24,331 nucleotides of DNA from Elusimicrobiota bacterium (GTDB lineage: Bacteria; Elusimicrobiota; Elusimicrobia; UBA1565): NCBI GenBank assembly GCA_043827405.1, contig JBDRPD010000031.1:1-24331 (forward strand), written 5' to 3'. The notes under the pieces were generated by a model. It did no database searches and was not told the DNA's origin. It worked only from the letters and a program-made list of their open reading frames with translations. Below are positions 3,496 through 22,757 of the stretch, in pieces. Made by a program: the position numbers and the translations under genes. Numbering within the stretch: the first letter of the stretch is position 1; the number at the start of each line of letters is the position of its first letter.

Positions 3496-3661
3496 GCAGT
3501 TCCGGAACACATTGGCCACGTATTTAACGTGACTGGTTAACTACCCTCCCATTATGAGCCGTTCCCCAGATAAATCAAGGCTTTTTTACTGTAACCTAAG
3601 TTACAAACCGACTCCCTCCTATTCCCCCCTTATTAAGGAAAATGTACGTTATAGCACCAGC

Positions 3662-7481: not shown

Positions 7482-7513
7482 TCCCTCCCCAAGCGATACC
7501 CCAAACTACCAAG

Positions 7514-7585
7514 CGGTACCGGTTATTAACATTAACTTTCCCATGATTTTGCGTCCCGGGAAGTTAATGTTAATAACCGGTACCG
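7514..7585. repeat. Palindromic intergenic element, copy 1 (REP/MITE-like)
   Basis: Perfect 25-bp inverted repeat CGGTACCGGTTATTAACATTAACTT (7514-7538) / AAGTTAATGTTAATAACCGGTACCG (7561-7585) with a 22-nt core; lies between convergent genes. Confidence 0.95.
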
Positions 7586-7600
7586 GAATGGGGCCGGGAC

Positions 7601-9268
7601 TTAGTGGCGGGCGGCGTAGTAGGCGGCGAAGGAGAAGAACAGGGCGATCCAGAACAGCGCCAGCCCTACCGGGGCGCGCCGCCGGTCCACCTCGTAGTCG
7701 AAGGGCACCGCGTTCACGCACAGCGCCACGCCCTCGGTCGACATGACGCGGCCGATGCCGCGCAGCAGGGCCACGATCCCGCCGACCAGCGCCGCGAACG
7801 GCTTGCGGTAGAGCCAGTCCACATCGAGTGAAATGGCGTCCTTGGGCTTGAGCACCTTGAGCAGCAGCCAGAAGGCGGCGGCGGTCCCCAGGTGCAGCTG
7901 CAGCGAGCCCGCGACATGGGTCAGCGTATACGGGTGGTATTCGGCGGCGTTCGGCAGGAAATCGTAGAGCATCTGCGGAAACAAGCCGAGCAAGGTGCAC
8001 AGCGCCGCGGCGAAGCCCATGGCCACGTACATATTGGCCGGCAGCGCCTTGGCCTTTATCTTGCAGTCCTCGCCGAAGAAGGCGTGATACGCCAGCTTGA
8101 GCCCGATCGACAGGAAGGTGCCGACGGAAGCGAGCTCGAGGAGCAGCTCCAGGACGATGCGGTGCTCGTGGCCGAAGGCGCTGATCGTCATGGTCTTGCT
8201 GATAAAGCCGTTAAACATCGGCAGGCCCGAGATCGAGAAGGCCCCCACCATGAACAGGACGAGTACCGCCGGCATCTGCCGCACCAGCCCGCCGAGCTCG
8301 GTCAGCTTGCTTTTGCCGGTGGCGTAGATGATCGCCCCCGCGCCCATAAACAGCAGGCCCTTATAAAGGATGTGGCAGAAGGCATGCGCCGCCGCGCCGT
8401 CCAACGACAGCGCCGTGCCCAGGCCGACGCCCGCCACCATGAAGCCGACCTGGCTGACGATATGGTAGGAGAGCAGCCGGCGAATATCGTTTTCCAGCAC
8501 CGCGAATACGACGCCGTAGAGCGCCATGATGACGCCGATAACCGCCAGCGGCTCGGCGCCGGGGAAAGCCCGCAGCAGCACGTAGACCGCGGTCTTGGTG
8601 GTGAAGGCGCTCTGTACGACGCTGCCGGTAACGGTGCATTCAGGATACGCGTCGGTCAGCCAGGCATGGAGCGGCGGGATCGCGGAGTTGACCGCGACGC
8701 CGGTTAAAATCAGCCAGCCGGCGGGGGTCAGCGGCCCCTGCCCGGTCAGGGCCAGGAACTCGGAGCTGCCGCCGTTTGCCAGGTGCAGCAGGATGCCGGC
8801 GAACAGTATGCCGCCGCCCATCACATGCACCAGCAGATAGCGGTAGCCCGCCTTCAGCGAGCCGGGGGTGTCGCCCATCCAGATAATGAAGATGGAGGCC
8901 ACGCTCATGAGCTCCCAGAAAACGAACATGGTGATCCAGTCGCCGGCGAACACCACGCCCAAGGCCGAGCCGGCCAAAGCGAGGGAGGCGGCCTGCTCCT
9001 TGCCGCCCGGATGATGCAGGGCGTAGATAATGCCGGCGAAAGTGATCAGGCAGAAGATGATGCCGAACAGCAGGCTCAGCGAGTCAAAGCGCATCAGCTC
9101 CAGCGTATAGCCCGGCAGCTTGTAGGGCAAAGACGAGCCGCCCGACAGGCCGAACAGCGTCCACAAGGCCAGCGCGGGCGCCGCCGTCACGGCGATCCGG
9201 CGCACATTCCCCCGCAGCACGATCGCCAGGGCCGCAGCGCCGAACAGGAAGTGGGATGGGTGCAGCAT
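7601..9268 (-). CDS. mrpD: Mrp-type Na+/H+ antiporter, antiporter-like subunit D (third paralogue)
   Basis: Polytopic membrane protein; FVFWELMS, IPPLHAWLTDAYPE, FTTKTAVY, DIRRLLSYHIVSQVG, HILYKGLLF, FNGFISKT. Confidence 0.88.
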   Translation of the reverse strand: MLHPSHFLFGAAALAIVLRGNVRRIAVTAAPALALWTLFGLSGGSSLPYKLPGYTLELMRFDSLSLLFGIIFCLITFAGIIYALHHPGGKEQAASLALAGSALGVVFAGDWITMFVFWELMSVASIFIIWMGDTPGSLKAGYRYLLVHVMGGGILFAGILLHLANGGSSEFLALTGQGPLTPAGWLILTGVAVNSAIPPLHAWLTDAYPECTVTGSVVQSAFTTKTAVYVLLRAFPGAEPLAVIGVIMALYGVVFAVLENDIRRLLSYHIVSQVGFMVAGVGLGTALSLDGAAAHAFCHILYKGLLFMGAGAIIYATGKSKLTELGGLVRQMPAVLVLFMVGAFSISGLPMFNGFISKTMTISAFGHEHRIVLELLLELASVGTFLSIGLKLAYHAFFGEDCKIKAKALPANMYVAMGFAAALCTLLGLFPQMLYDFLPNAAEYHPYTLTHVAGSLQLHLGTAAAFWLLLKVLKPKDAISLDVDWLYRKPFAALVGGIVALLRGIGRVMSTEGVALCVNAVPFDYEVDRRRAPVGLALFWIALFFSFAAYYAARH

Positions 9269-9495
9269 CAGTCCCAGTCCCCCTTGCCGTAGTAGTCGTC
9301 CTTGCGCCCGATGAGCTTGTACATGATGATCTTGGCGAATACCGTGAGCAGGGCGCCGCCGATGATGCCGAAGAGAAACAGGAAGCCCGGCATGGACATG
9401 ATGCCGTCCCCGCCGTGGCCGTGATCCATGGCGCCCATGATCAGGCTGATCGCCAGCAGGCCGAGCCCGCCCAAGAGCAGATGCTTCTTCTTCAT
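9268..9495 (-). CDS. Small two-helix membrane protein within the Mrp operon
   Basis: 75 aa with two hydrophobic segments and C-terminal IGRKDDYY; overlaps both neighbours by start/stop coupling. Confidence 0.8.
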   Translation of the reverse strand: MKKKHLLLGGLGLLAISLIMGAMDHGHGGDGIMSMPGFLFLFGIIGGALLTVFAKIIMYKLIGRKDDYYGKGDWD

Positions 9496-10979
9496 CCCAA
9501 GCCCCCGGGCACGCCGGTAATGGCGCCGGCCGCCATCCAGGCCAGCTGGTAGAACTTAAGGAAGGCGTTGGGGCTGACGCCGAGGATCAGCGCGCATACC
9601 GCGGTGATCGCCAGCGGCACCCAGTTGGCGGGAGCCGCCTCGTCGAAGCGCAGCTTGCCCTCGCCGGCGAAGAAGGCGCGGTGGACGATCGGAAAGAAGT
9701 AGGCGAAATTGAGGATGGCGCTGGCGACCAGCACGGCGATGAATATCTCATGGCCGGAGTGGATGGCGCCCAGGCCCAGGTTCCACTTGCTGACGAAGCC
9801 CGCGAACAGCGGCACGCCAGCCAGGCCCATGGCGGCGAGGGTGAAGGCGGCGAACGTCACCGGCATGCGCCGGCCCATGCCGTCGAGGTCCGGGATCTCG
9901 GTCTTGTGCGTACGGGTGTAGATGGAGCCGGCGCAGAAGAACAGGGTGATCTTCATGAAGCCGTGCGCGGCGATATGGAAAATCGCGCCGGCCACCGCCG
10001 CGGGCGAGCCCAGCGCGGCGCCCAGCACGATGTAGGAAAGCTGGCTTACGGTGGAGTAGGCGAGCCGCTTCTTGAGGTTGGTCTCGCCCAGCGCGCGCAG
10101 CGAGCCGCCGATAATGGTCGCCGAGGCCAGGCCGGCGATAAACCAGTCGGCCCCGATCTCGCGCAGCAGATTAGGCCCGAAGATATAGCCGGTCACGCGC
10201 ACGCAGCCGAAAGCGCCCGCCTTGACGACGGCCACGGCGTGGAGCAGGGCGCTTACCGGCGTCGGCGCGACCATGGCCGACGGCAGCCAGCCCTGCAGCG
10301 GGAAGATCGCGGCCTTCACCCCGATTCCCAGCATAAAGAGGAACAGCAGCATGCGCAGCTCGCCGTGAGAGAAGCCCGCGCCGGCCAAAAATCCCCCCGG
10401 GGTGAACTCGGCGCCCGGGACCTTGCTCTCGGCCCAGATGAGGGCCAGCAGCAGGGCCTGCCCGGCGACGAGCGTATAGGCGAGGTACTTGCGGCCGCCG
10501 GCGACCGCCTCGTCGGTCCGGTTATGGATGACCAAGGGATAGGTCGCGATGGTCAGGATCTCAAAGAAGATGAAGAAGGTCAAAGTGTTGGCCGCAAAAG
10601 CTATGCCGATGGCGGAAGATACGCAAACCGCGAAGCAGGCGAAGTACATGGTCTGGTTTTTGTAGTTCCCGCCCCGCATATAGCCGACGGAGTAGAGCGA
10701 GGTGAGAATCCACAAGCAGGAAGCGAGCAGGGCGAAGACCATGCCGCAGGCGTCGGCGCGCAGGTGCAGCTTGATGCCGGGACCGATCGCCATGATGACG
10801 GCTTCGGGCGGATATCCCGCCAGCACGTCGGGCAGGAGCGAAAACACGCAGAAGAACATGGCGAAGGCGGCGAGGAAGGTCCAGGTCTCGCGCACGTTGG
10901 GGCGTTTGTCCGACAGCAGGATCAGCGGCACCGCCGCCAGCCCGCACAGCACGGGATAAAGAGGGCGGTAGTCGATCAC
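9492..10979 (-). CDS. mrpD: Mrp-type antiporter-like subunit (MrpD/MrpA-like, second paralogue)
   Basis: FIFFEILTIATYPL, GVKAAIFPLQGWLPSAMVAPTPVSALLHAVAVVKAG, NLKKRLAYSTVSQLSY, GFVSKW. The GTG start at 10979 overlaps the upstream TGA (GTGA). Confidence 0.88.
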   Translation of the reverse strand: MIDYRPLYPVLCGLAAVPLILLSDKRPNVRETWTFLAAFAMFFCVFSLLPDVLAGYPPEAVIMAIGPGIKLHLRADACGMVFALLASCLWILTSLYSVGYMRGGNYKNQTMYFACFAVCVSSAIGIAFAANTLTFFIFFEILTIATYPLVIHNRTDEAVAGGRKYLAYTLVAGQALLLALIWAESKVPGAEFTPGGFLAGAGFSHGELRMLLFLFMLGIGVKAAIFPLQGWLPSAMVAPTPVSALLHAVAVVKAGAFGCVRVTGYIFGPNLLREIGADWFIAGLASATIIGGSLRALGETNLKKRLAYSTVSQLSYIVLGAALGSPAAVAGAIFHIAAHGFMKITLFFCAGSIYTRTHKTEIPDLDGMGRRMPVTFAAFTLAAMGLAGVPLFAGFVSKWNLGLGAIHSGHEIFIAVLVASAILNFAYFFPIVHRAFFAGEGKLRFDEAAPANWVPLAITAVCALILGVSPNAFLKFYQLAWMAAGAITGVPGGLG

Positions 10980-12439
10980 CAGGCGGCCCCCGGTAAAGCG
11001 TAGGTGATGACGGCGTCGACCAGCTGCTGATTGCACAAGCCGATGGCGATCACGAGCGTCGCCAGGATCAGGGAAGGTATGCGGTACGCCGCCGGCGCCT
11101 CCTCCTTGGGCTGATCGCCTACGGGCTTAAAGAGGTAGAACTGCTCGATTACGCGAAAGAAGTAGACGGTATTGAGCAGGCTGCTGATGACCAGGGCGGC
11201 GACAAAAGGCCAGGCCTGCGCCTTGACGGCGCCGGTCGCGAGATAGAGCTTGCTGAAGAAGCCGCAGGTCGGGGGCAGGCCGATCATGGAGATGGCCGCC
11301 GTGGTGAAGGCGGCGCAGGTCCACGGCATGCTCTTGGCCAGGCCGGCGAAATCGGGGATATCGGTCTTGCCGGTGCGCGCGCGGATGCCCGCCACGCACA
11401 TGAACAGGCAGCCTTTCATGACGGCATGATTGATGATATGCAGTATCGCCCCGGTCATGGCGATCATGCCGCCCAGGCCCATGCCGAGCGCCACATAGCC
11501 GATCTGCGCCACGCTCGAATAGGCGAGCATGCGGCGGATATCGCGCTGCGCCAGCGCCATGACCGAGCCGGCAACGACGGTGAACGCCGCCATCCAGCCG
11601 AGGAAGCTGAGCACCGGCTCCGCCGGGCCGCGCGCGGCGAAGACGGTATAGAGGACGCGGATCAGGACATAGGCGGATACCTTCGACATCACCGACGAGA
11701 TAAAAGGGATGACGGAAGGCGGTGAATAGGTGTAGGCGTCGGGCTGCCAGCCGTGCAGCGGGAACAGCGCCATCTTGATGGCCATGCCGGCGAAGATGAA
11801 GGCGAGGCCGCAGACCACGGCCCGGCTCGCATGCAGCTGCGGCAGGAGCGTGCTCATATCGGCCATGTTCAGCGTCCCGGTGGCCGCGTACAGGTAGCCG
11901 AGCCCCAGCACCCAGAAGGTCGCCGCCACGCTGCCGATGATCAGGTAGCGGAACGCGGCCACGCGAGCCTTGTCGCCGCCGTTGGCGACCAGGGCGTAGC
12001 CGGAGAGCGCGGAAATCTCGAGAAAAACGTAGAGGTTGAAGAGGTCGCCGGTGATCGAGATGCCGATGAGCCCGGTGACGAGCAGGAGATACAGCCCGTG
12101 GAAGGCGCCCGCACGCAAACCCGACATCTGCGTCGTCTCGCGCTCGACTCCGAAAACCGTCAGCAGCGCGAAGAACGATACCAGGACGGCCATCAGCCCG
12201 CTGAGCGCGTCGATAGCGAACTCGATGCCCCAGGGCGGGGTCCAGTCGCCGAAGTGATAGTGGATCGGCCCGACGGCCAGCGCCTCCACCAGGATCGCGA
12301 CGGCGAAGCCGAGCACCGCGGTGAGCACCGCGATGCACATGAAGCGCATCCAGCGCACCGAGCGCATGGCGACCAGCGGCGCCAGCATCGCCGCCATCAG
12401 CGGGACGGCAACGATCAGGGCGGGGTACTGGGAGCTCAT
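10976..12439 (-). CDS. mrpD: Mrp-type Na+/H+ antiporter subunit D
   Basis: YHFGDWTPPWGIEFAID, TGDLFNLYVFLEI, AIKMALFPLHGWQPDAY, RRMLAYSSVAQIGY, GFFSK. Confidence 0.92.
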   Translation of the reverse strand: MSSQYPALIVAVPLMAAMLAPLVAMRSVRWMRFMCIAVLTAVLGFAVAILVEALAVGPIHYHFGDWTPPWGIEFAIDALSGLMAVLVSFFALLTVFGVERETTQMSGLRAGAFHGLYLLLVTGLIGISITGDLFNLYVFLEISALSGYALVANGGDKARVAAFRYLIIGSVAATFWVLGLGYLYAATGTLNMADMSTLLPQLHASRAVVCGLAFIFAGMAIKMALFPLHGWQPDAYTYSPPSVIPFISSVMSKVSAYVLIRVLYTVFAARGPAEPVLSFLGWMAAFTVVAGSVMALAQRDIRRMLAYSSVAQIGYVALGMGLGGMIAMTGAILHIINHAVMKGCLFMCVAGIRARTGKTDIPDFAGLAKSMPWTCAAFTTAAISMIGLPPTCGFFSKLYLATGAVKAQAWPFVAALVISSLLNTVYFFRVIEQFYLFKPVGDQPKEEAPAAYRIPSLILATLVIAIGLCNQQLVDAVITYALPGAAW

Positions 12440-12825
12440 TTATCGCTCGCCAGCCTTGCGAGCAGCTCGGGCTCTTCGATGGTGCCGTAGCGGCGATAGA
12501 TGGCGACGATCAGCGCCAGCGCGACGCCGGTGGTGCTGACGCCGACGACGATCGCGGTCAGCATCAAGGCATGCGGCAGGGGGTTGACGTACTGCGCGGC
12601 GTGCACCAAGACGTCCGCCCCGTGCCCGCCGTGGGTCGCGATCACCGGAGCGTCGGCGCCGATCTTCTCGGCGAGGCTGAGGTAGAAGATGATCGCGGCC
12701 ACCTGGAATATGTTCATGGCCATCAGCTTGCGCATGAGGTTGGGCCGCGCCAGCATGCCGTGCACGCCGATCAGCAGCAGAACGGCCACCGCCCAGTAGT
12801 TGACGATGGCGTAGAATCCGCTCAT
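12436..12825 (-). CDS. mrpC: Mrp antiporter subunit C
   Basis: NLMRKLMAMNI and VNPLPHALMLTAIVVG; position in the operon. Confidence 0.92.
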   Translation of the reverse strand: MSGFYAIVNYWAVAVLLLIGVHGMLARPNLMRKLMAMNIFQVAAIIFYLSLAEKIGADAPVIATHGGHGADVLVHAAQYVNPLPHALMLTAIVVGVSTTGVALALIVAIYRRYGTIEEPELLARLASDK

Positions 12826-13259
12826 CCGTGGTCCTCGCGATGGTCGGTCAGGAGGTCGAAGATAAGGACCATGGTTCCCATCACGCCGATGGTCACGCCG
12901 ATCTCGATGCCGAGGATGCCCATGGCGCGGATCTCGGGACGAGCCATGGGCAGCGGCAGCGCGCCGTAGTTGAGGAAGTTGGCGCCGGAGGCGACGCAGG
13001 CCACTCCGATGCCGGCGTAAATCAGGACTCCGAGGACGCCGAGCGCGACGCAGCGCTTGCGGTCCAGGCCCCAGCCGGGCGTGCTGCCGCGTACCAAGCG
13101 CACCAGGATGAGGGCTGAGGCCAGCATGGTGCCGCCCTGAAAGCCCCCGCCCGGGCTGTAATGCCCGTGAAACAGCACGTAGAGCGCGAACAAAAGGATG
13201 TAGGGGACCAGCAGCCGCGCCGCCGCATCGAGGATCTGGCTGCCGAAAGGCCGCTTCAT
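12822..13259 (-). CDS. mrpB: Mrp antiporter subunit B
   Basis: HGHYSPGGGFQGG signature. Confidence 0.92.
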   Translation of the reverse strand: MKRPFGSQILDAAARLLVPYILLFALYVLFHGHYSPGGGFQGGTMLASALILVRLVRGSTPGWGLDRKRCVALGVLGVLIYAGIGVACVASGANFLNYGALPLPMARPEIRAMGILGIEIGVTIGVMGTMVLIFDLLTDHREDHG

Positions 13260-13543
13260 TCCTCGTCCTCCTTGCGGCCGGCGGCGCCGAGAATAATCAG
13301 GCAGGCCAGTCCGGCGGTCAGGATAACCGAGGTCTCGCCCAGAGTATCAAAGCCTCTATAGTCGGCCAGCACCGTGGTCACGATATTGGGAGTCGCCGCG
13401 TCCGCCAGCGAGTTCTCGACATAGTCCGGCGAGATATGGGTCGCGGCGGGCGACTTATCGCTGCCCACCGGCGGCAAATCCTGCGCCGCATAAAACAGCA
13501 CGCCGCCCATGAACAGGACCGCGATAAATGACAGCACCCTCAT
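13256..13543 (-). CDS. Mrp subunit B-related protein (MbhE-like, equivalent to a MrpA C-terminal segment)
   Basis: TPNIVTTVLADYRGFDTLGET signature. Confidence 0.88.
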   Translation of the reverse strand: MRVLSFIAVLFMGGVLFYAAQDLPPVGSDKSPAATHISPDYVENSLADAATPNIVTTVLADYRGFDTLGETSVILTAGLACLIILGAAGRKEDEE

Positions 13544-13791
13544 GGCGAGTCCTTCCGGTTCTTGTGCGAGCGGTGGATGGCGGAGACGAAGAAGACGGTG
13601 GCGATGACGGCGCCGAGCGCCACCTCGGTGAACGCCACGTCGAGGGCGCCGGTGATGGCGTAGAAAGTCGCGGAGAAAAAGCTGAAGGCGCCGAAGAGGA
13701 TGACCGCCGAGAGGAGATCATCCGCCTCCAGCGCGGTGATGGCGGTAATAATGAGGAGCACGAGAAACAGGGTCTCCAGGGGCTGGATCAT
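13540..13791 (-). CDS. Mrp subunit, DUF4040/MbhD-like
   Basis: Starts MIQPLET; DDLLSAVIL..GALDVAFTEVALGA. ATG 13791 is coupled to the mrpG stop (ATGA). Confidence 0.85.
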   Translation of the reverse strand: MIQPLETLFLVLLIITAITALEADDLLSAVILFGAFSFFSATFYAITGALDVAFTEVALGAVIATVFFVSAIHRSHKNRKDSP

Positions 13792-14093
13792 GGCTTCTTG
13801 GTCCAGGGCTTGAGGCCCGCCAGGTGCGCGGCGCGGCCGAGCGCATGCGTGGCCGTCGGATTGGCCAAAGCGATAAAGAACAGGATGGCGAGAATCTTGA
13901 GACTGGTCAAGGTCGCCCCTTCGTAGAGCGCGAGCCCGCCCAGCATCAAAGCCACGCCGAGCGTATCGCACTTGCCCTGGGCGTGCAGGCGGGTATAGAA
14001 ATCGGGCAGCCGCAGGACGCCCAGGATGCCGAAGCAGACGAAGACAAAGCCGGCCGCTATCAGGACCACGGCGGCGATCTCGACCAAGGTCAT
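13788..14093 (-). CDS. mrpG: Mrp antiporter subunit G
   Basis: GVLRLPDFYTRLHAQGKCDTLG..NPTATHALGRAA. Confidence 0.93.
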   Translation of the reverse strand: MTLVEIAAVVLIAAGFVFVCFGILGVLRLPDFYTRLHAQGKCDTLGVALMLGGLALYEGATLTSLKILAILFFIALANPTATHALGRAAHLAGLKPWTKKP

Positions 14094-14362
14094 ACCTTGA
14101 GGTTCCTGCGGCTCTCGAAGAACTTGGCCAGCCCCAGCGTCCCGATAAATCCCACCAGCGCGTAGGTCAGCGCCAGGTCCACCAGCATATCCGCCTTATG
14201 GGTCAGCGAGCCCATGAGCACGAGGAGCACCACGGTCTTGGTGCCGATCAGCCCCAGTCCGATCAGCCGGTCGAAATGCGTCGGGCCGCGCACGACGCGG
14301 TAGAGCGAAAGCAGCATCGCCAAGCCGAGAGCGAGCGCCATGGCGTTGAGGTAGGCGTGCAT
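14090..14362 (-). CDS. mrpF: Mrp antiporter subunit F
   Basis: Starts MHAYLN; YRVVRGPTHFDRLIGL..VDLALTYALVGFIGT. The true start is 14362, not the 14665 given in the ORF track. Confidence 0.92.
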   Translation of the reverse strand: MHAYLNAMALALGLAMLLSLYRVVRGPTHFDRLIGLGLIGTKTVVLLVLMGSLTHKADMLVDLALTYALVGFIGTLGLAKFFESRRNLKV

Positions 14363-14856
14363 CAGCTTTCCCCCCGCTTCTGGAACAGCTCGAACACCCG
14401 CCGCTGCATATCCCCCTCGCCTGCGGCGGGGATCAGGGCTTCGCCGGCGGGCTTGGTCAGGGCATGTACGATATAATCGTCGCCCTGCAGATCGATGGTC
14501 ACCGTGCCCGGCGTCAAGGTGATGGAGTTGGCCAGCGTTAAATGCGCCACCGTATGCGGCAGCTTGCATTTGAAGCGGATAAAGCCGGGATCGATAGGCA
14601 TCTCGGGGGCGAGGACCACCTTCGCCACCTGAACCGCGGAGTCGAAAATCTGCCAGCACAGCCACGGCAGATACGAAAACCAGCCTCTCCAGGTATAGGC
14701 GCGCAGCCCGTAGACGGGAGGTTCGGCGAGCTCAAGACGGTGTGTGAAGTAGGCGACGCCGACGGAACTCAGCAGACCCAGCGAAAGATGGAAAGCATCG
14801 ATCTTACCGGAGAGAATGACCCAGAAGATAAATAGAACGACGCTCATGAGGACCAT
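14362..14856 (-). CDS. mrpE: Mrp antiporter subunit E
   Basis: LANSITLTPGTVTID..YIVHAL. Confidence 0.93.
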   Translation of the reverse strand: MVLMSVVLFIFWVILSGKIDAFHLSLGLLSSVGVAYFTHRLELAEPPVYGLRAYTWRGWFSYLPWLCWQIFDSAVQVAKVVLAPEMPIDPGFIRFKCKLPHTVAHLTLANSITLTPGTVTIDLQGDDYIVHALTKPAGEALIPAAGEGDMQRRVFELFQKRGES

Positions 14857-14909
14857 ACGGTGCGCTATTTAATAATAAATGCCCGCCGAAACACAATATC
14901 GGCTCAGGC

Positions 14910-16547
14910 TCAGCGGTGGGAGCCGCGCGCCATGGGCATGCGGCGCCCGGCGCCGAAAGCCTTGCCCGACACCCGCAGCGCCGGCGGCGCCTGCCGGCGC
15001 TTGTACTCGTTGCGGTCGATCATGCCCAGGATCTTCCCGACGAGCTCGGCGGCATGTCCCCGCTTGACGATAGCGGAGACGTCGAGCCCCTGCTCGACAT
15101 AGGCGGTGAGGATATCGTCGAGCACGTCGTAGGGCGGCAGGTCGTCCTGGTCCTTCTGCTCGGGCTTAAGCTCGGCCGAGGGCGGCTTGTCGATCGTGGC
15201 CTGGGGTATGCGCATGCCGTCGCGGTTAAGCCAGGCGGCGAGCTGGTAGACGGCCGTCTTGGGCAGGTCGGCGATCACCGCGAGGCCGCCGTTCATGTCG
15301 CCGTAGAGCGTGCAGTAGCCGACCGACAGCTCGGACTTATTGCCCGTCGACAAAACCAGTCCGCCGCTCTTGTTGGAAAGCGCCATGAGCAGGCTGCCGC
15401 GCACGCGCGCCTGGATATTCTGCTCGGCGAGGCCGGGCTCGCTGTCGCGGAAAGCCTCCCGCAGCGCCATCAGCATCGAGTTGTAGACATGCGTGATCGG
15501 GATCTGGTAGAGGTTGACGCCGAGCGTCTCGGCGAGCGCTTCCGCGTCGGCGACGCTGCCTTTGGATGAGTGCATCGACGGCATGGAGACCCCGGTCACA
15601 TGCTCGGGGCCGAGCGCGTCGGCCGCCAAGGCGCAGACGACGGCGGAGTCTATCCCCCCCGAAAGGCCGACGATCACGTCGGCGAACCCGCACTTGCGCG
15701 TATAGTCGCGGATGCCGAGGATCAGCGCGCGGGCGACATGCTCGATCTCCACCGGGTCATCCCAGCGGTTCTCGGGGACGCCGGCGTCGGAGTCCACGTA
15801 CAGCAGGTCTTCCGCGAAAGACTTGGCTTGGAGCAGCAGGTGGCCGTCCGGATCGAGCGCGAAGCTGCTGCCGTCGAAAATCAGCTCATCATTGCCGCCG
15901 ACCAGCGAACAGTAGATGAAGGGGCGCTTGGCGCGGACCGCATGGCTCTTGATCAGCTTGCGGCGCAGCGCGACCTTGCCGCGATCGAAGGGCGACGCGG
16001 CGATATTGATCAGGATCTCGGCTCCCGCCTTCACCTGTTCGTCGACGGGGTCCTGCTTGTATATCTGCCGGGGCCGGAAATTCTTGTCGTTCCAGGCGTC
16101 CTCGCAGATCGTCAATCCGATCTTCCGCCCGCGGAAGCTGATCGGGATATTATTGTCCGCCGGCTCGAAGTAGCGCGTCTCGTCGAACACGTCGTAGCTG
16201 GGGATCAGGGTCTTGAAGCGCTTGGCCGCGATCTTCTTTTTATGCAGCAATGCCGCGGCGTTGAACAGCGGCTTTCCCGTTTTGGCGGGATTGGGCTCGG
16301 CATAACCGACCACCAGGCCGGCATCGCCGGATTCGCGCGCCAGCTTCTTGAGAGCGTCCAGGTTGGCGCGAATAAAATCGCTCTGCTCGAGCAGGTCGCA
16401 TGGGGGATAGCCGGTCAGCGTCAGCTCGGGAAAAAGCACCAGCTCGGCGCCATGCTCACAGGCGAGGGCGTAGCGCTCGCGTATCAGCTCCAGGTTCCCC
16501 GCGATGTCTCCGACTGTCGTATTTATTTGCGCCAGCGCGATTCTCAC
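14910..16547 (-). CDS. nadE: Glutamine-dependent NAD+ synthetase
   Basis: Nitrilase-type glutaminase triad (FPEL, FKTLIPSYDVFDE, ICEDAW) plus synthetase motifs GLSGGIDS, NIQAR, STGNKSE, PPSAEL. GTG start with a GGAGG ribosome-binding site. Confidence 0.96.
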   Translation of the reverse strand: MRIALAQINTTVGDIAGNLELIRERYALACEHGAELVLFPELTLTGYPPCDLLEQSDFIRANLDALKKLARESGDAGLVVGYAEPNPAKTGKPLFNAAALLHKKKIAAKRFKTLIPSYDVFDETRYFEPADNNIPISFRGRKIGLTICEDAWNDKNFRPRQIYKQDPVDEQVKAGAEILINIAASPFDRGKVALRRKLIKSHAVRAKRPFIYCSLVGGNDELIFDGSSFALDPDGHLLLQAKSFAEDLLYVDSDAGVPENRWDDPVEIEHVARALILGIRDYTRKCGFADVIVGLSGGIDSAVVCALAADALGPEHVTGVSMPSMHSSKGSVADAEALAETLGVNLYQIPITHVYNSMLMALREAFRDSEPGLAEQNIQARVRGSLLMALSNKSGGLVLSTGNKSELSVGYCTLYGDMNGGLAVIADLPKTAVYQLAAWLNRDGMRIPQATIDKPPSAELKPEQKDQDDLPPYDVLDDILTAYVEQGLDVSAIVKRGHAAELVGKILGMIDRNEYKRRQAPPALRVSGKAFGAGRRMPMARGSHR

Positions 16548-16620
16548 TGTTCCTCCGGATCGTTGGTTATTTAATGTTTTTCGATATGTTTGTGCAATCT
16601 CAATATGCTAATTAAGCAGC

Positions 16621-17874
16621 GTGGCGAAACGTCCGCCGGCATCGGTGCTAAGCAGCGCGTCCGTTTTGGCGGCGGTTTTGCTCCTCGCGTCCGCCTGCGC
16701 GCACCCGCCCAGCTTCGTTAAGAAAAGCAAGTCGATGCGGGCCATGCTCTACCAGCCGGAGGTCCAGCCCTTCACCGACAGCCTCGATTTCGCCTTCGAG
16801 ATCGACCGCAAATGGAAAGGCCCCCTTAAAAACAAGCTCGGCGTCTACCGCTTCACGCATCCGGATGAACGCGCCACCTTCGATATCGTCTACCTTCTCA
16901 ACGGCTCGCCCGGCTGGAAGACGCCGGTCAAGCTGCTGCAGAGCATGCGTGAAAAGGGCTCGATCGAGGACACGCATATCATCGAGGACATGAAGGTCGC
17001 CGCGCGTCCGGCCAAGCGCATCCGCTACACCTCCTACCTCTATGATCCGAAATTTCGTATCGGCGAGAAGCCCGAGGTCCTCTACACGGAGGAGATCGTC
17101 GTTCCCGATCCGACGGGCTATCATCTCCTGCGCTTCCAGGCGCCGCAGCAGAGGTTCTGGTCCGACCGCAAAGCGCTGGGCTATGTCCTCACCTCGATCA
17201 CGCTGGCGGAGCGCAAGGGCGAGAGCAAGGCGGACGCCTTCTCGAGCCTGCGCAAGAAGCAGTCCGTCGGCGACCGGATGCAGATCAATTCGTTTGACCG
17301 GGAGGACGCCGACCGCAAGCGGCGCAAGCGCTACCAGGCGGGCCTGCAGCTGGGGCAGGCGCGGCCGCTGACGCTGGACTCTAAGCTGGACTTCCCCCGG
17401 CTGCTGCGCCCCGGCTACGCGGCGCATGCGCAGTTCATGTATTTCCTGCGCAACCGCTACGGCATCGGCGCCGAGCTGTCCCTGCTGCAGCTCCCCCCCC
17501 GGACCGAGATACTCCTGCCGGGGACTCCGCCCGTCACGCGCAGCGCAGAAGCCAAAGCGACCATACTCTCGGTCGCCGGCCGCCTGCGGCTCAACGAGCT
17601 GCCCCGCTCATCGCCCTACCTGGCGGCCGCGGTGGGCTATTACTCCTTCGAATACTCGCTGAGCGTCAGCGGCCTCGCGAGCACGTCCTTGGCGGGAAAC
17701 CTCAAATCGACGGGAATCGCCCTGGGCTGCGGAGCGGGCTACGAGCTCTTCGTTCACCGCCGCGCGAGCCTGACGCTGGAGGCCCGCTATCAGCAGCTGC
17801 GGCTGGGCAGCGAGTTCTCCAACGGCACGTTTGAAGCCTTCAGCGCGGTTCTCGGCACCCATTACTGGTTCTAG
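16621..17874 (+). CDS. Putative lipoprotein with an N-terminal PsbP/DcrB-like domain fused to a C-terminal outer-membrane beta-barrel (OmpA/OmpW-like)
   Basis: Lipobox-like LLASAC. The C-terminal ~180 aa has alternating beta-strands (YGIGAELS, SPYLAAAVGYY, GAGYELF, SLTLEARY) and ends VLGTHYWF. The domain names are inferred. Confidence 0.7.
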   Translation: MAKRPPASVLSSASVLAAVLLLASACAHPPSFVKKSKSMRAMLYQPEVQPFTDSLDFAFEIDRKWKGPLKNKLGVYRFTHPDERATFDIVYLLNGSPGWKTPVKLLQSMREKGSIEDTHIIEDMKVAARPAKRIRYTSYLYDPKFRIGEKPEVLYTEEIVVPDPTGYHLLRFQAPQQRFWSDRKALGYVLTSITLAERKGESKADAFSSLRKKQSVGDRMQINSFDREDADRKRRKRYQAGLQLGQARPLTLDSKLDFPRLLRPGYAAHAQFMYFLRNRYGIGAELSLLQLPPRTEILLPGTPPVTRSAEAKATILSVAGRLRLNELPRSSPYLAAAVGYYSFEYSLSVSGLASTSLAGNLKSTGIALGCGAGYELFVHRRASLTLEARYQQLRLGSEFSNGTFEAFSAVLGTHYWF

Positions 17875-17888
17875 GCTGAATCCGCGCA

Positions 17889-17984
17889 TAGGCCTTTGGG
17901 CCCACTCCATGCTGGGCCCTAAGCGTAATTCAAATTGGGCCCAATGCCCCTCCTATTATCCCCCCATCCCGCTACACTGGAAGC
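17889..17984 (+). promoter_or_regulatory. Triple GGGCC-box array plus -10 (TACACT) upstream of the PilZ gene
   Basis: TAGGCC 17889, TGGGCC 17913, TGGGCC 17936; TACACT at 17973-17978, 6 nt before the ATG. Confidence 0.6.
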
Positions 17985-18545
17985 ATGAAGATTTCGGCCT
18001 CGTTTGCCGACCCCTCGGCATCAGCGGTTAACCCCGCCGAACAGCGCCGTTCAACGCGTTACAGCAGCGATTTTCGCATCTCTATGCTGGACGTCGAGAA
18101 CCGGCCCGCGGACGAGGCCGTCCGTTTAATAAACCTCAGCGACTCGGGCGTCGGCATAGAAAGCAGCCGCCGCCTGGCGGTCGGCCAGCGTCTGGGCTTT
18201 GAGCTGGCGACCGGATCGGGGACGCCCGTAAGCGCCCAGGCCCGGGTCCGCTGGAGCCAGCCCTCCGGGCACTACTTCAGCTACGGCTTGAAGCTGGAGG
18301 ATATGGGCTATTTCGCCCGCATGCGCCTCGAGAAGTTCCTCAAGCCCCCGGTGTTCGGCCCGCTGGAATGGGCGACCTTGGCGCTGGAAGCGGGCGCGAG
18401 CATGGTCGTGATCCTGATCATCGCGGACTGGCTCAACCGCAGCCCCCACGTCATCTCCGCGCTCACGCCGCTGCTCCCGGTGCTGCTGCCGGCGCTCCTG
18501 CTCGCCGGCCTGGTGAAGCTCTTCGACTTGATCCGCAGCTGCTGA
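17985..18545 (+). CDS. PilZ domain (c-di-GMP-binding) protein with two C-terminal transmembrane helices
   Basis: QRRSTR (RxxxR), NLSDSG (D/NxSxxG), ARVRWS..YGLKL; hydrophobic C-terminal hairpin. Confidence 0.85.
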   Translation: MKISASFADPSASAVNPAEQRRSTRYSSDFRISMLDVENRPADEAVRLINLSDSGVGIESSRRLAVGQRLGFELATGSGTPVSAQARVRWSQPSGHYFSYGLKLEDMGYFARMRLEKFLKPPVFGPLEWATLALEAGASMVVILIIADWLNRSPHVISALTPLLPVLLPALLLAGLVKLFDLIRSC

Positions 18546-18556
18546 CCCCCCCCATC

Positions 18557-18591
18557 CGGCACCCATCAGATACCCCCTCAGGTACCCCATC
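18557..18591. repeat. Degenerate 11-12 bp tandem units flanking palindrome copy 2
   Basis: CGGCACCCATC, AGATACCCCCTC, AGGTACCCCATC, then CGGTACC. Confidence 0.75.
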
Positions 18592-18672
18592 CGGTACCGG
18601 TTTTTAACATTAACATTCCTGTGTACAACTGCGGATTGAGTTCGGGAATGTTAATGTTAAAAACCGGTACCG
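18592..18672. repeat. Palindromic intergenic element, copy 2
   Basis: Perfect 28-bp inverted repeat CGGTACCGGTTTTTAACATTAACATTCC (18592-18619 / 18645-18672) with a 25-nt core; lies between convergent genes. Confidence 0.95.
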
Positions 18673-18698
18673 CCTAAAGCGCGTCGCGGTACCGCTGC

Positions 18699-19682
18699 CT
18701 AGAAGCCCGCGCGGCAGCGCGGATCTAGCGCGTCGCGCATGAAGAGCTCCGGCCCCTGATCGGTGATGCGGAAGCCCCAGCGTTCATGCCCCCACAGCGG
18801 CTGCGTCTTGGTATAGGCGAATATATACGGCCGGCCGCGGCGGTTGGGATCATACGCCACGAACTGCATCTGGCGGGTCTCCACGTTGAGCTCATGCGGC
18901 ATCTCCTCGCAGTCGCCCATCGGCTTGATTCCGTTGAACATGCGCAGGCAGCGGCGGTAGGTCTGTGATATCTGCGTTCCCTCGACCAGGACGAAGGCGT
19001 CGGCAAAGCCGAGGTAGCGGATCTTGGAGCCGAAATCTATCTTGAACTGCACCGCCTGCGGGTCGGGATCCTTGGCGAAGGCATGGCCCTTCTCATCGGT
19101 CACGTCGATCTGAAAAGCGCCGCTGCGCAGATCGGAAACCACCGCCGCGCGGATGGCATCCTGCAGCTTCTGGTACGTCTGCTCCTTGACCTCGTTGCGC
19201 AGCGGGTAGAACCAGGAGCGCTTCTTGTCGAAAGTCTTGCCTTTCGGCAGCAGCAGCGCGATAATGGGCGTTCCCACCGCGGCGAACTTCTTGGCCGAAC
19301 CGGCGGTCAGCAGATAGGCGGTACGCGGCACCGGATGTCTTCCCTCGCAGGCGGCGATCCAGGTCCGGGTGGTGCCGCCGACGCGGAATACATCGACCCC
19401 GCTGCTGCCGATCACCGCCAGCAGGCTTCCCTGGCGCACGCGGCGGCGGCTCATCTGCGGCTCGCGGTCGACCAGCATCCAGCGGCCGCCGGCCTCATAG
19501 ACCGGATAAATTCCGGGCCGGCTCTTGCCCTGGGTCAGCGGACGCTTCTCTTCCACGTCGGGTCCCACCTGGATATCACCGCGGCCGCGCTTTTCCTTGG
19601 ACACAGGCTTATCCCCGGAAATGACGCCCGCGCTCCAAACCGGAGCCGCGAACAGCAGCAGCATTAAGGCGCTCTTAAGCAT
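18699..19682 (-). CDS. Secreted hypothetical protein
   Basis: 327 aa ORF with signal peptide MLKSALMLLLFAAPVWSA and four Cys; -10 TAGAAT 7 nt before the ATG. Confidence 0.8.
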   Translation of the reverse strand: MLKSALMLLLFAAPVWSAGVISGDKPVSKEKRGRGDIQVGPDVEEKRPLTQGKSRPGIYPVYEAGGRWMLVDREPQMSRRRVRQGSLLAVIGSSGVDVFRVGGTTRTWIAACEGRHPVPRTAYLLTAGSAKKFAAVGTPIIALLLPKGKTFDKKRSWFYPLRNEVKEQTYQKLQDAIRAAVVSDLRSGAFQIDVTDEKGHAFAKDPDPQAVQFKIDFGSKIRYLGFADAFVLVEGTQISQTYRRCLRMFNGIKPMGDCEEMPHELNVETRQMQFVAYDPNRRGRPYIFAYTKTQPLWGHERWGFRITDQGPELFMRDALDPRCRAGF

Positions 19683-19756
19683 GGCGGATATTCTACTATA
19701 GCAGGCCCTGATTACAATTTTTGGACAGCCCCATCCTCCTCATGGAGTCCTTATTA

Positions 19757-19854
19757 TGGGCCCGGGGGCCCAGCGCAAAAAGGGCCCTTTATCCGCGGTC
19801 ATTTAGGCTTATCGGCTCGTGTAGGATAATCCGTGTTGCGACATACTATGCGGG
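19757..19854 (+). promoter_or_regulatory. Triple GGGCC-box array plus -10 upstream of the 19855 gene
   Basis: TGGGCC 19757 (palindrome TGGGCC-N4-GGCCCA), AGGGCC 19781, TAGGCT 19804; CATACT/TACTAT at 19842-19849. Confidence 0.6.
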
Positions 19855-20712
19855 ATGCGTGTGAAATCAGCAGTCTTTTTCACGATTGCTGCGCTCCTCG
19901 GCGTCGCGTCCTATTCCCATGGCGCGCTTCCCGGGGGTCTTGCTGCGGGCGCGCGGCTGTGGGCCGCCGCCGGAACCGAAGTCCCCGCGATTGACAACGG
20001 CGGGGTGGTCTTCGAGCCGGAGAAGCTGCGGCTCAGGGGCGAGACGCGCAAGGGCGATTACCAGCAAGTCCCCGCCGCCGCGCCGGAAGCGAGCGTCCAT
20101 CTCGGCGCCATCTTCAACCGGCAATGGAAGCAGGCCGAAGTTCTGGGCATTGCGGACGACCAGCTGTTTCTCAGCATAACCTTTGATCTCGAAGGCGACG
20201 CCTACCTGTCGATTATGGCCGCGCAGTGGGAGCAGCCGAACTTCTACAAGCTGGAGCGGACGCTGCACGGTGAATGGGAGCTCCCCGGCGGCAAGTACAG
20301 CGTCGACCTCGACGTCAGCATTTTCCGCGAGCGCATCAGCAACTACATCGTCATCAGGAAGGAAGGCGTCGAGCAGCCGGTCTACCGCAAGCGCATCAAG
20401 CACCTGCTGCTGCAGGCCTATTTATCCGGCCGGCGCATAACTTTGGGCGGCCGCGAGTACATGGTGTTTTTCTCCTTCGACCTGGACGGCGCGAACAAGC
20501 CGGCGCAGATGCGCAAAGACAAGTTCGGCATCGTGCTGGTCCACGATGACCGGGACGGCGAAGAGCACAATTTCTATACCTACATCATCGCCTATTCCGA
20601 TCTGACAGCGGATCAGGTCCTGCGCAAGGAGTTCTTCGGCGATTATCCGGCGGGGCTGCGCATCGCCGAGGACAATACCACGCTCGAGATTTACGGCTTG
20701 TCGAAACCGTAG
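19855..20712 (+). CDS. Secreted hypothetical protein, beta-rich
   Basis: 285 aa ORF with signal peptide MRVKSAVFFTIAALLGVASYSHGA and normal codon usage. Confidence 0.82.
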   Translation: MRVKSAVFFTIAALLGVASYSHGALPGGLAAGARLWAAAGTEVPAIDNGGVVFEPEKLRLRGETRKGDYQQVPAAAPEASVHLGAIFNRQWKQAEVLGIADDQLFLSITFDLEGDAYLSIMAAQWEQPNFYKLERTLHGEWELPGGKYSVDLDVSIFRERISNYIVIRKEGVEQPVYRKRIKHLLLQAYLSGRRITLGGREYMVFFSFDLDGANKPAQMRKDKFGIVLVHDDRDGEEHNFYTYIIAYSDLTADQVLRKEFFGDYPAGLRIAEDNTTLEIYGLSKP

Positions 20713-21623
20713 TAGACCAGCGATCCCAGGAAGGTCTCGAACGCCGCATGCTCGCGCTTGAAGCTCGCCGCGGGCGCCCGAAAGCGCAGCACCAGGAAGC
20801 CGTCCTCGATAGCGCGCAGATGCACGCATTCATGCTCCACGCTGCGCACCGCGCCGTGCGCGCGCTCCTCGCGCGCCATGATCCGCAGGCGATACATGCT
20901 GGGCTTGGGGATGCGCGGGACCTCGTCGCCGCGGCCGACCGCCATGATCACTTCTCGGCCGAAGCAGGCGGCGATGATCTTGCGCTCGGTCGAACGCAGC
21001 GAGACGCGCTGATGCTCGCCCAAGCGCTTCTTTCTGCGCATGCGCCGGTAGTCGCCGAGCATGCCCCAGGCATCGAGCCGCCGGCAGCGGTACAGGCGGT
21101 AGGCTTCGCCGCCGACCAGGAAGCGCCGGCGCTCGAAGAGGCTCAAGCGGGGCGGAGGGAAATGCGCGCCTAGATAGTCGGAATAGGGGTCGCCGCTGCC
21201 GATGCGGCGGGTGAAGCGCACGAACTCCAGGCCGTGACGGACCGGGAACTCCAGCGCCCCGACCTTATGCCGGGTCTCGCGCGGCGTCTCCCCTGCGGGA
21301 GCGAGGTTGCGCAGGAACAGCTCCTTGTCGGCCGCGCTGCCGTCGGCCGCGCTGTAGCGCTCGACCAAAATAGCGGCTTCCCCCACGCGCAGCGTTTTGC
21401 TGAAGACCGCGAGCACGGGCGCGCCCATCTCGCCGGAGGACTGCCGGTAGCCTTCCGCCAGCACCGCCCGCAGCAGCGGCGCCGTCGAGCGCCTGGCGTC
21501 ATATACCGTAATGGGAGCGCGGCGGACGCCCAAGGGGTCGCCGGCGGCGTAAACCGGTCCGCCGGCCCGCGCGGCGGCGCAGCAGGAACCAAGGAGCGCG
21601 AGGGCCGTCGCAAAGCGCAGCAT
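20691..21623 (-). CDS. Secreted hypothetical protein with a PsbP/DcrB-like C-terminus
   Basis: 310 aa ORF with signal peptide MLRFATALALLGSCCAAARA; C-terminal GFLVLRFRAPAASFKREHAAFETFLGSL. Confidence 0.75.
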   Translation of the reverse strand: MLRFATALALLGSCCAAARAGGPVYAAGDPLGVRRAPITVYDARRSTAPLLRAVLAEGYRQSSGEMGAPVLAVFSKTLRVGEAAILVERYSAADGSAADKELFLRNLAPAGETPRETRHKVGALEFPVRHGLEFVRFTRRIGSGDPYSDYLGAHFPPPRLSLFERRRFLVGGEAYRLYRCRRLDAWGMLGDYRRMRRKKRLGEHQRVSLRSTERKIIAACFGREVIMAVGRGDEVPRIPKPSMYRLRIMAREERAHGAVRSVEHECVHLRAIEDGFLVLRFRAPAASFKREHAAFETFLGSLVYYGFDKP

Positions 21624-21646
21624 GACTAATACTATAATATCGGCTC
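21624..21646. promoter_or_regulatory. Overlapping divergent -10 boxes in a 23-bp gap
   Basis: TATAAT (+, 21633-21638) 8 nt before the galE ATG; TATAGT (-, 21631-21636) 7 nt before ATG 21623; no Shine-Dalgarno sequence. Confidence 0.65.
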
Positions 21647-22624
21647 ATGGCTGACGAGAGCATTCTGGTCGTCGGCGGCGCGGGCTATATCGGCTCGCAG
21701 TGCGCCAAGGAGCTGAAAAAGGCCGGGTTTGAGCCCGTCGTCCTGGACAACCTGTGTACGGGCTATCGCGACAACGTGCGCTGGGGACCGTTCATCGAGG
21801 GCGACATCGGCGACAGCGCCCTGCTCGACGAAGTATTCAGCAGCCGCCGCTTCGCCGGCGTCATGCATTTCGCCGCGCATGCCTTGGTCGGCGAATCCAT
21901 GGAGAACCCCGGCAAGTATTACCGCAATAACGTCGCCGCCACGCTCAACCTGCTGCAGGCCATGGTTCGCGCCAAGACGGCGAACTTCATCTTCTCCTCG
22001 ACCTGCGCCGTCTACGGCGAGCCCGAGCAGGTCCCGCTCCGCGAAGACCATCCGCGGCGGCCGATCAACCCCTACGGCCGCAGCAAGCTGATGGTCGAAG
22101 AGATGCTGCAGGATTTCGACGCCGCCTACGGTCTGCGCTACAGCGCGCTGCGCTACTTCAACGCCGCCGGCGCCGACCCGGAGGGCGAGACCGGCGAGGC
22201 GCATGATCCTGAAACGCATATCATACCGCTGGCCATCCAGGCCGCCTTGGGCAGACGCGCCGGGCTCAAGGTTTTCGGCGCCGACTACGACACCCCGGAC
22301 GGCACCTGCCTGCGCGACTACATCCATACCGTCGACCTGAGCGCGGCGCATATCCTGGCGCTCCGCCGGCTGCTGGACGGGGGCGCCAGCGCCGCCTACA
22401 ACCTCGGCAACGAGGAGGGCCGCTCGGTGCTGGAAGTCATCGCCGCCGTCAAAAAGGCGTCCGGCAAGGACTTCAAGGTCGAGCAGGTGGAACGCCGCCC
22501 CGGCGATCCGGCCCGGCTGATCGGCTCCTCCGCCAAAATCAAGCAGGAGCTGGGCTGGTCGCCGCGCTACGGCGAACTGGAGACCATGGTGCGGACCGCC
22601 TGGGACTGGGCCCAGCGCCGCTAG
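21647..22624 (+). CDS. galE: UDP-glucose 4-epimerase
   Basis: GGAGYIGS, HFAA..VGES, FSSTCAVYG, NPYGRSK (YxxxK), LRYFNAAGAD, DGTCLRDYIH, RRPGDP. Confidence 0.96.
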   Translation: MADESILVVGGAGYIGSQCAKELKKAGFEPVVLDNLCTGYRDNVRWGPFIEGDIGDSALLDEVFSSRRFAGVMHFAAHALVGESMENPGKYYRNNVAATLNLLQAMVRAKTANFIFSSTCAVYGEPEQVPLREDHPRRPINPYGRSKLMVEEMLQDFDAAYGLRYSALRYFNAAGADPEGETGEAHDPETHIIPLAIQAALGRRAGLKVFGADYDTPDGTCLRDYIHTVDLSAAHILALRRLLDGGASAAYNLGNEEGRSVLEVIAAVKKASGKDFKVEQVERRPGDPARLIGSSAKIKQELGWSPRYGELETMVRTAWDWAQRR

Positions 22625-22628
22625 CCTT

Positions 22629-22676
22629 CAGCGCCCCGTCCAGCACCACGTCCGGTACCCCGTCCAGCGCCCCGTC
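22629..22676. repeat. Four 12-bp tandem units flanking palindrome copy 3
   Basis: CAGCGCCCCGTC, CAGCACCACGTC, CGGTACCCCGTC, CAGCGCCCCGTC, then CGGTACC. Confidence 0.88.
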
Positions 22677-22757
22677 CGGTACCGGTTATTAACATTAACT
22701 TTCCGAAATTCAAACAGCTGTTATGCACAGGAAAGTTAATGTTAATAAACGGTACCG
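22677..22757. repeat. Palindromic intergenic element, copy 3
   Basis: 28-bp inverted repeat with 1 mismatch (22677-22704 / 22730-22757) and a 25-nt core; the right arm contains the stop codon of the convergent gene. Confidence 0.95.

Follow-up and report, generated by a model that had tools for sequence, protein, structure and literature searches.

What is a long AT-rich palindrome doing at three gene junctions of a GC-rich contig, and what could have put it there? The window, by which we mean the whole stretch analysed, comprises 24,331 nucleotides of contig JBDRPD010000031.1 from an Elusimicrobiota bacterium. It is contig C31 of a 4.33-Mb genome of 63% G+C (G000) and holds three such elements, at 7514-7585, 18592-18672 and 22677-22757. 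A first-pass annotation, made from the letters of the window, took them for an undescribed mobile hairpin family moved in trans and possibly used as a bidirectional terminator or 3′ stabiliser at convergent gene ends. Here, we argue that the elements are very probably gene-less inverted-repeat pairs belonging to a Y1 transposase encoded on another contig, C36, which would copy or move them in trans as folded single-stranded hairpins.

A Y1 transposase gene with the same arms

The three copies are real and lie where they had been placed. Each consists of 28-bp inverted arms enclosing a spacer of 16-25 bp; the arms of copies 1, 2 and 3 are 96%, 100% and 96% complementary and the spacers measure 16, 25 and 25 nt. 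The difference in composition had also been read correctly, the arm having 39% G+C and the window 64%. Folded as single-stranded DNA, the copies reach −26.7 to −32.2 kcal/mol (z −9 to −11), a stability found in 0/200 shuffles; one arm alone gives −0.1 kcal/mol (z +1.16) and forms no hairpin. An Rfam scan, proposed as a check for a known family, returned 6 matches, the best with 32.7 bits against a gathering threshold of 116.6, and no family came near threshold.

Genome-wide, arms with at most 6 mismatches number 39, of which 3 are unpaired and the rest form 18 inverted pairs (62-122 bp); next to the copies on C1 and C63 lie two truncated arms. All three unpaired full arms flank one open reading frame (ORF) of 285 amino acids, C36:19925-20782. 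One of them (19871, plus strand) lies 26 bp beyond the stop codon, and the other two (20816 and 20843, minus strand) stand in tandem and end 33 bp upstream of the start. Looking for copies beside an HUH gene had been suggested by the first-pass annotation, and three arms indeed bracket one. Since they do so in the arrangement called TIRtron or TIRYT, in which terminal inverted repeats (TIRs) flank a Y1 gene, the elements most probably represent non-autonomous TIR dimers of that gene.

The C36 protein belongs to Y1_Tnp (PF01797, E 6e-12) and carries the motifs NHIH, FQ and YIHQNP; H59, H61 and Y118 are invariant in 28 aligned sequences. Its best structure match is TnpA-REP 4ER8 (profile E 2.5e-9, fold E 3.1e-6), and in its predicted structure (mean predicted local distance difference test score 86) a disordered linker joins an HUH core to a helical C-terminal domain, residues 218-282. 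The C-terminal tail matches HTH_23 (E 0.02) and Bac_DnaA_C (E 0.046) weakly, and a DnaA-type helix-turn-helix (HTH) is matched at E<=0.1 in 14/28 family members (best 2.8e-5); a PDB search with the C-terminal 80 residues gave nothing useful. Another strain (contig in run X4) also has the tandem arms in this position before the C36 gene, which is consistent with a resident gene.

There are three Y1 genes in the genome, on C36, C3 and C22. A search of genome contigs with the C36 transposase found 2 distant loci. The C3 gene (G000:C3:106051-107250, L014) forms a second TIRtron with a different TIR and its own dispersed arms (26 arm matches), present as dimers and singles on C3, C18, C50, C53, C76 and C83. 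This gene and its arm family offer an internal control for the pairing of one enzyme with one repeat. Two 13-bp fused-end palindromes of the C3 family (C44:9099 and C50:57053) look like excision footprints. In the third Y1 gene (G000:C22:50844-51849, L012), the HUH motif is degenerate (NYVH) and the ends are short GGTGTCAGAC sequences, for which no dimer family was seen (4 motif matches).

Insertion at gene junctions and sister families

Do the arms and the spacer come together, or did two arms land around native DNA? Other genera of the family supplied genomes for a comparison at seven junctions, 11 of the 18 sites lying outside it. At five of the seven, the orthologous gaps are short and element-free, so that the empty sites for which a search had been advised exist in other genera. 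These are the junctions that we take, from protein sequences, to be eutM-pduL (11-20 bp in 9/12 relatives vs 102 here), purM-purN (−4 to 10 bp in 4/4 vs 101), pnp-pdp (7-9 bp in 3/5 vs 120) and gatC-pcrA (−1 to 7 bp in 5/5 vs 100), and the first junction of the window (10 and 18 bp in 2/3 vs 119). Several co-oriented gene pairs that hold copies abut or overlap in relatives. Because orthologous junctions are mostly short, arms and spacer are to be regarded as insertions, and the two arrive together, as one. That the spacer might be native DNA caught between two separate arm insertions was rejected at the five junctions with short orthologous gaps.

Across the 18 copies, a scan for target-site duplications of 2 to 35 bp gives no z above 1.91, and inverted flanks in the genome are likewise without signal. 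No excision joints were found among strain read data, which are noisy and whose assembled contigs drop rare variants. The motif GGTACC, in turn, is about 20-fold enriched beside the copies (7 in 1800 bp vs 50 in 272,530 bp of other intergenic DNA). In the related strain of run X2, two sites have outer flanks lengthened by a flank-plus-arm-end unit; the flank of window copy 1 has one unit more there, and a 10-bp deletion.

The exact arm pattern was found in 0/40 relatives, none of them congeneric, in no metagenome contig and in no viral contig; one element each, searched against plasmids and phages, had no match either. Transposase homologues at E<=1e-15 occur in 151/401 genomes of the phylum, and TIRs were recognised at 24 of the 29 best relatives' transposase loci (score >=16, no shuffle control). 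Most of these TIRs consist of an outer GGTGYCWGRC-like motif, in some GGGGTC, followed by short tandem units. Dimers with the GGTGYCWGRC-like motif are present in 35/71 genomes of the order, the backwards control giving 0, and the TIR of the resident gene recurs as dimers in 5/5 genomes inspected (G018, G300, G366 and G389, with G034 having one partial). A GGTACC-ended dimer pattern run over the 401 genomes gave mostly noise, its backwards control being as frequent, with few true hairpins (G094, G266, G303). Tandem GGTACC-N-GGTACC junctions stand at hairpin ends at G303:C65:157760 and G003:C13:2881-3042, the form expected if the cut lies just inside the outer motif.

Sister families at four junctions (A-D) were compared in genus g17, identical rows being merged and kin not being independent. 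Site D is filled in 3 rows, scarred in 1, empty in 9 and mis-anchored in 1, and site B is filled in 5 and empty in 8; at both, filled sites exceed empty ones by 22-26 bp of non-element DNA, which includes a partial target duplicate. At site A, 7 elements are complete and represent 4 arm types, 3 are remnants and 12 junctions are empty; no constant excess of such DNA is seen there. Between species, the arms remain roughly 99% identical and the spacers drift. Some junctions hold different arm families in different species. In this respect, the eutM-pduL junction of one relative (L103, G016) carries a sister-family hairpin at the site that holds the C36 family in G000, and TIR-like remnants lie at the alaS junction of another (L127, G003), where G000 again holds the C36 family. 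Both appear to be instances of repeated use of the same sites.

A proposed mechanism and its alternatives

How would such elements spread, and what keeps their arms alike? We propose that the C36 enzyme nicks and rejoins the folded single-stranded hairpin near an outer motif, as the HUH family would lead one to expect. The arm would be a two-part structure, with an outer GGTRYC-type motif, common to the order and nicked nearby by the HUH core, and an inner, family-specific tandem repeat bound by the C-terminal HTH. Copies would hop rarely and often locally, landing in any intergenic gap that tolerates them, and would then persist; enzyme recognition and hairpin-templated repair would keep the arms constant, whereas the loop would drift. 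Tandem scars of about 12 bp would result from repeated nicks at the end of the arm, and any effect on transcripts would be incidental.

The observations behind this proposal are as follows. The arms are shared with the transposase gene, they are inserted as a unit, and changes in one arm are mirrored in the other, the mismatches within copies totalling 29 vs 62 for shuffled partners (0/20000). Neighbouring copies are kin: 5 pairs lie within 16 kb of each other vs 0.94 expected (p 0.005), and 2 of these 5 have spacer sequence in common. The arm and spacer data are best explained by descent, with copies hopping locally, arms under constraint and loops that drift.

A broader reading, possible but doubtful, would make this one case of an order-wide, REPIN-like system run by group-1 REP-associated tyrosine transposases (RAYTs; REP standing for repetitive extragenic palindrome), the enzymes of subclass 2.1, which are described as having no REPINs. 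The work on the arm would be split between the HUH core (outer GGTRYC) and a DnaA-type HTH (inner repeat), and at a junction once seeded, the resident enzyme would overwrite the element where it stands, exchanging the inner arms, and in some cases the spacer too, while the outer motif stays. This enzyme would be a domesticated member of an extracytoplasmic function (ECF)-sigma stress regulon, together with other DNA-processing genes. On this last point, the motif GAAC-N14-18-CGTA occurs within 75 nt upstream of 19/32 transposase genes vs 70/3575 genes of the genome, ending 8-11 nt before the transposase start; three further genes have it with one base changed, and the script set two starts wrongly. 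At the C36 gene, the first half of the motif lies directly against the inner end of the arm at 20816. To judge from the ECF-sigma consensus, the motif is presumably a promoter of that type. The strict form, GGAAC-N16-CGTA, has 13 matches in the genome, shortly before start codons. The 10 of these that were scanned comprise ORF6N, UPF0102, Schlafen/AlbA_2, a DEAD-box helicase, an M48 peptidase, one weak Brinker-domain match and 4 without a match. The transposase and the first five of these are a candidate ECF-sigma stress regulon.

Could the spacers instead be records of the insertion events, each new copy capturing fresh host or foreign DNA? We consider this quite unlikely, although several properties of the spacers speak for it. 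Out of 136 spacer pairs tested (a 6-nt spacer was left out), 135 are unrelated beyond chance, with 7/136 at p<0.05 as chance predicts; lengths cluster at 22-25 nt (10/18), with others at 42-51 and 66, and G+C is 42% vs 54% in intergenic DNA. Also, the X2 strain has one spacer in exactly the form found in this genome (23/23, reconstructed by eye out of difference tables), so spacers are not continuously hypermutable. However, neighbours have spacers in common: those of window copies 2 and 3 are related in inverted orientation (17/25; z 6.4; 0/400 shuffles), and the 6-nt spacer equals the end of the spacer in a neighbouring copy 1.6 kb away. In addition, g17 orthologous spacers are plainly homologous and drifting (16-20 of 23-25 positions), the genome contains no convincing second match to any spacer (best 16 nt, E 0.017), and one element each, searched against plasmids and phages, had no match.

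Alternatively, the arms might be kept mainly as host regulatory sites, such as protein-binding boxes or promoter parts, the copies being immobile and the transposase a domesticated binder or incidental. This we regard as very unlikely. It would account for the fact that arms outlast coding flanks between species (26-27/27 vs 238-287/300 in g17), and for the copies that take up most of the space in four divergent gaps or lie 1-20 bp away from a start codon. The inner repeat also agrees with the DnaA box at 7/8 specified positions, though the same is reached in 271/5000 shuffles (5.4%), so the likeness is weak. Nevertheless, the element is missing from most orthologous junctions, arm sequence tracks the resident transposase and not the flanking genes, no common function is evident among those genes, and arm ends change between strains. 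The spacer of the copy at C62:38259-38276 resembles two facing DnaA boxes and has no second match in the genome.

Why did the elements look like terminators? Five gene junctions of the window are convergent, their gaps measuring −73, 119, 153, −22 and 117 bp, and, as the first-pass annotation had seen, the element lies in all three gapped ones and the other two overlap. Judged with a home-made gene caller, the contexts of the 18 copies are 3 convergent (all within the window), 11 co-oriented and 4 divergent; convergent gaps make up 108/1183 of those of at least 60 bp and 478/3556 overall, so that the supposed preference yields binomial p values of 0.22 and 0.44. The density of the window is not typical either (3 copies vs 0.10 expected, Poisson p 1.6e-4), and the many copies extrapolated from it come down to 18 pairs. 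With 3/18 copies convergent and a U-tract 3′ of the stem in 1/17 directions in which a transcript enters an element, the convergent-terminator reading is a local impression. Selection as bidirectional terminators or 3′ stabilisers is highly improbable despite the very stable hairpins and their place at all gapped convergent junctions of the window, as 11 copies lie between co-oriented genes, several pairs of which abut or overlap in relatives, and a terminator scan made no call on the three long window hairpins. The elements probably have no dedicated terminator role. In two copies, a gene takes its stop codon from the arm.

Some observations weigh against the mechanism that we favour, in which the C36 enzyme mobilises the hairpins. 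The link between enzyme and elements is drawn from sequence comparison, and the arms at the C36 gene depart from the consensus at 2, 3 and 6 positions. The DnaA-type HTH is weak, and no DnaA chain is among the structure-database matches. Drift explains the unrelated spacers only if the copies are old, and an intergenic GGTACC-N-GGTACC footprint for the C36 arm family is absent from the genome. Regarding the junctions, the empty ones come from other genera, there being no congeneric genome and no close empty site; the one compared in strain X2 was occupied. One of the seven has no orthologue in the relatives, the presumed alaS-qor gaps (33, 37, 51 and 166 bp) are ambiguous, since 33-51 bp compares with 26 without and 49 with the spacer, and 8/33 relatives' junctions are long for other reasons.

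The window copies are built as follows. In copy 1, the left arm (7514..7541, plus strand) has an outer GGTACC-G motif followed by an inner TTAAC tandem. Its spacer (7542..7557, 16 nt) and that of the copy on C52 begin with the same 8 nt, possibly by chance as the best of 612 end pairs; the right arm (7558..7585, minus) follows, and the outer flank (7482..7513, plus) is made of degenerate ~12-bp units of flank and arm end. In copy 2, the left arm (18592..18619, plus) has two private variants in common with its own right arm (18645..18672, minus), and the spacer (18620..18644, 25 nt) matches the reverse complement of that of copy 3 at 17/25 positions; its outer flank (18549..18591, plus) again holds degenerate ~12-bp arm-end units, with GGTACC at 18581 and, on the far side, at 18688. 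Copy 3 is composed of a left arm (22677..22704, plus), a 25-nt spacer (22705..22729) and a right arm (22730..22757, minus) that gives the last codons and the TAA stop to the ORF at 22742-24091 (minus), and its outer flank (22629..22676, plus) has four degenerate 12-bp units and GGTACC at 22654. Elsewhere in the window, a long minus-strand ORF at 1-3519, running past the left end and containing internal repeats of 138-160 bp, probably encodes a repeat-rich surface protein. An Mrp/Mnh-type antiporter operon (7601-14856, minus; three Proton_antipo_M genes, MnhB, MbhE and MrpF) was found by DNA search in 3/16 family genomes.

Relation to known systems

To which known system do these elements belong? 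TIRtrons or TIRYTs, and TIR repeat families including TIR dimers, are described in the text of Di Nocera et al. 2013 (PMC3733652). Like them, the system described here has a single Y1 HUH gene with its HUH motif and catalytic Tyr, a C-terminal HTH and inverted-repeat flanks instead of REP hairpins; the same repeats are dispersed as dimers in moderate number (18 here), and there is one repeat family per transposase. Unlike many TIRs in that text, the arm, which begins GGTACCGG (consensus start CGGTACCGG), lacks GGGGWSAS, a motif that is not obligatory there, being found in some TIRs and not in unrelated others. A similar TIR may stand in Figure 9, the alignment or the supplements of the same paper, the comparison having been made with its text. 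TIRtrons and TIR families are said there to coexist in few genomes, whereas sister dimers occur in 35/71 genomes of this order.

As far as the available text of the sources goes, subclass 2.1 TnpA-Y1 is equated with TIRYTs by Quentin et al. 2018 (PMC6006769), which ranks it as the second-largest TnpA-Y1 group (14.9% of strains), and with RAYT group 1 in bioRxiv 2020.03.09.984088. The motifs NHIH, FQ and YIHQNP fit those of Table 1 in PMC6006769 (NHVH/NH[YF]H, FQ, Y[IV]HLNP), one position differing in two motifs, and the separate C-terminal helical domain with its weak likeness to Bac_DnaA_C and HTH_23 is consistent with this placement. In the accessible parts of PMC5581495, 16-mers flanking group 1 RAYTs reach a modest 12 copies, and RAREFAN calls groups 2 and 3 alone repeat-associated, group 1 not. 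The prevalence of dimers across the order goes beyond these statements.

With REPINs and RAYTs of groups 2 and 3, as portrayed in the available text of PMC3116915, bioRxiv 2021.07.10.451892 and 2022.05.22.493013, the elements have in common conserved inverted ends, a variable spacer, a hairpin, compensatory changes, extragenic position, a single-copy HUH partner and apparent persistence in the lineage. They differ in having no hairpin within a single arm and no GTAG tag, the tetranucleotide of classic REPs whose lack had been noted at first sight, in numbering 18 and not hundreds, and in a partner from the group that RAREFAN does not call repeat-associated. The system therefore works like REPIN-RAYT but does not have REP ends, and the obligatory features of a TIRtron are present as far as they were tested.

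Classical miniature inverted-repeat transposable elements have DDE partners and target duplications. Like those named in the text of PMC3733652 (ERIC, Correia/NEMIS), the elements are short, non-coding, intergenic and bounded by TIRs, but the partner here is an HUH enzyme, no target-site duplication of fixed length accompanies the 18 copies, and interiors are not conserved. We found no literature, in a search that covered few subscription journals, on the C36 arm, its lineage or REP in Elusimicrobia. Of the initial idea of an undescribed mobile hairpin family, mobility in trans remains probable and has gained an HUH partner with the same arms; what appears to be new is the arm family, the kind being already described as TIRtron/TIR-dimer in PMC3733652.

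In itself, the element is one more TIR-dimer family. Nevertheless, the C36 family is a clean test case for whether subclass 2.1 enzymes move repeats and for what their HTH binds. Cross-specificity and HTH-swap assays would be direct, since two enzymes and their separate arm families occur in a single genome. Moreover, the order-wide outer motif, the variable inner repeat, the re-occupied junctions and the promoter motif lead to specific predictions about where the enzyme cuts, where it binds and which condition induces it.

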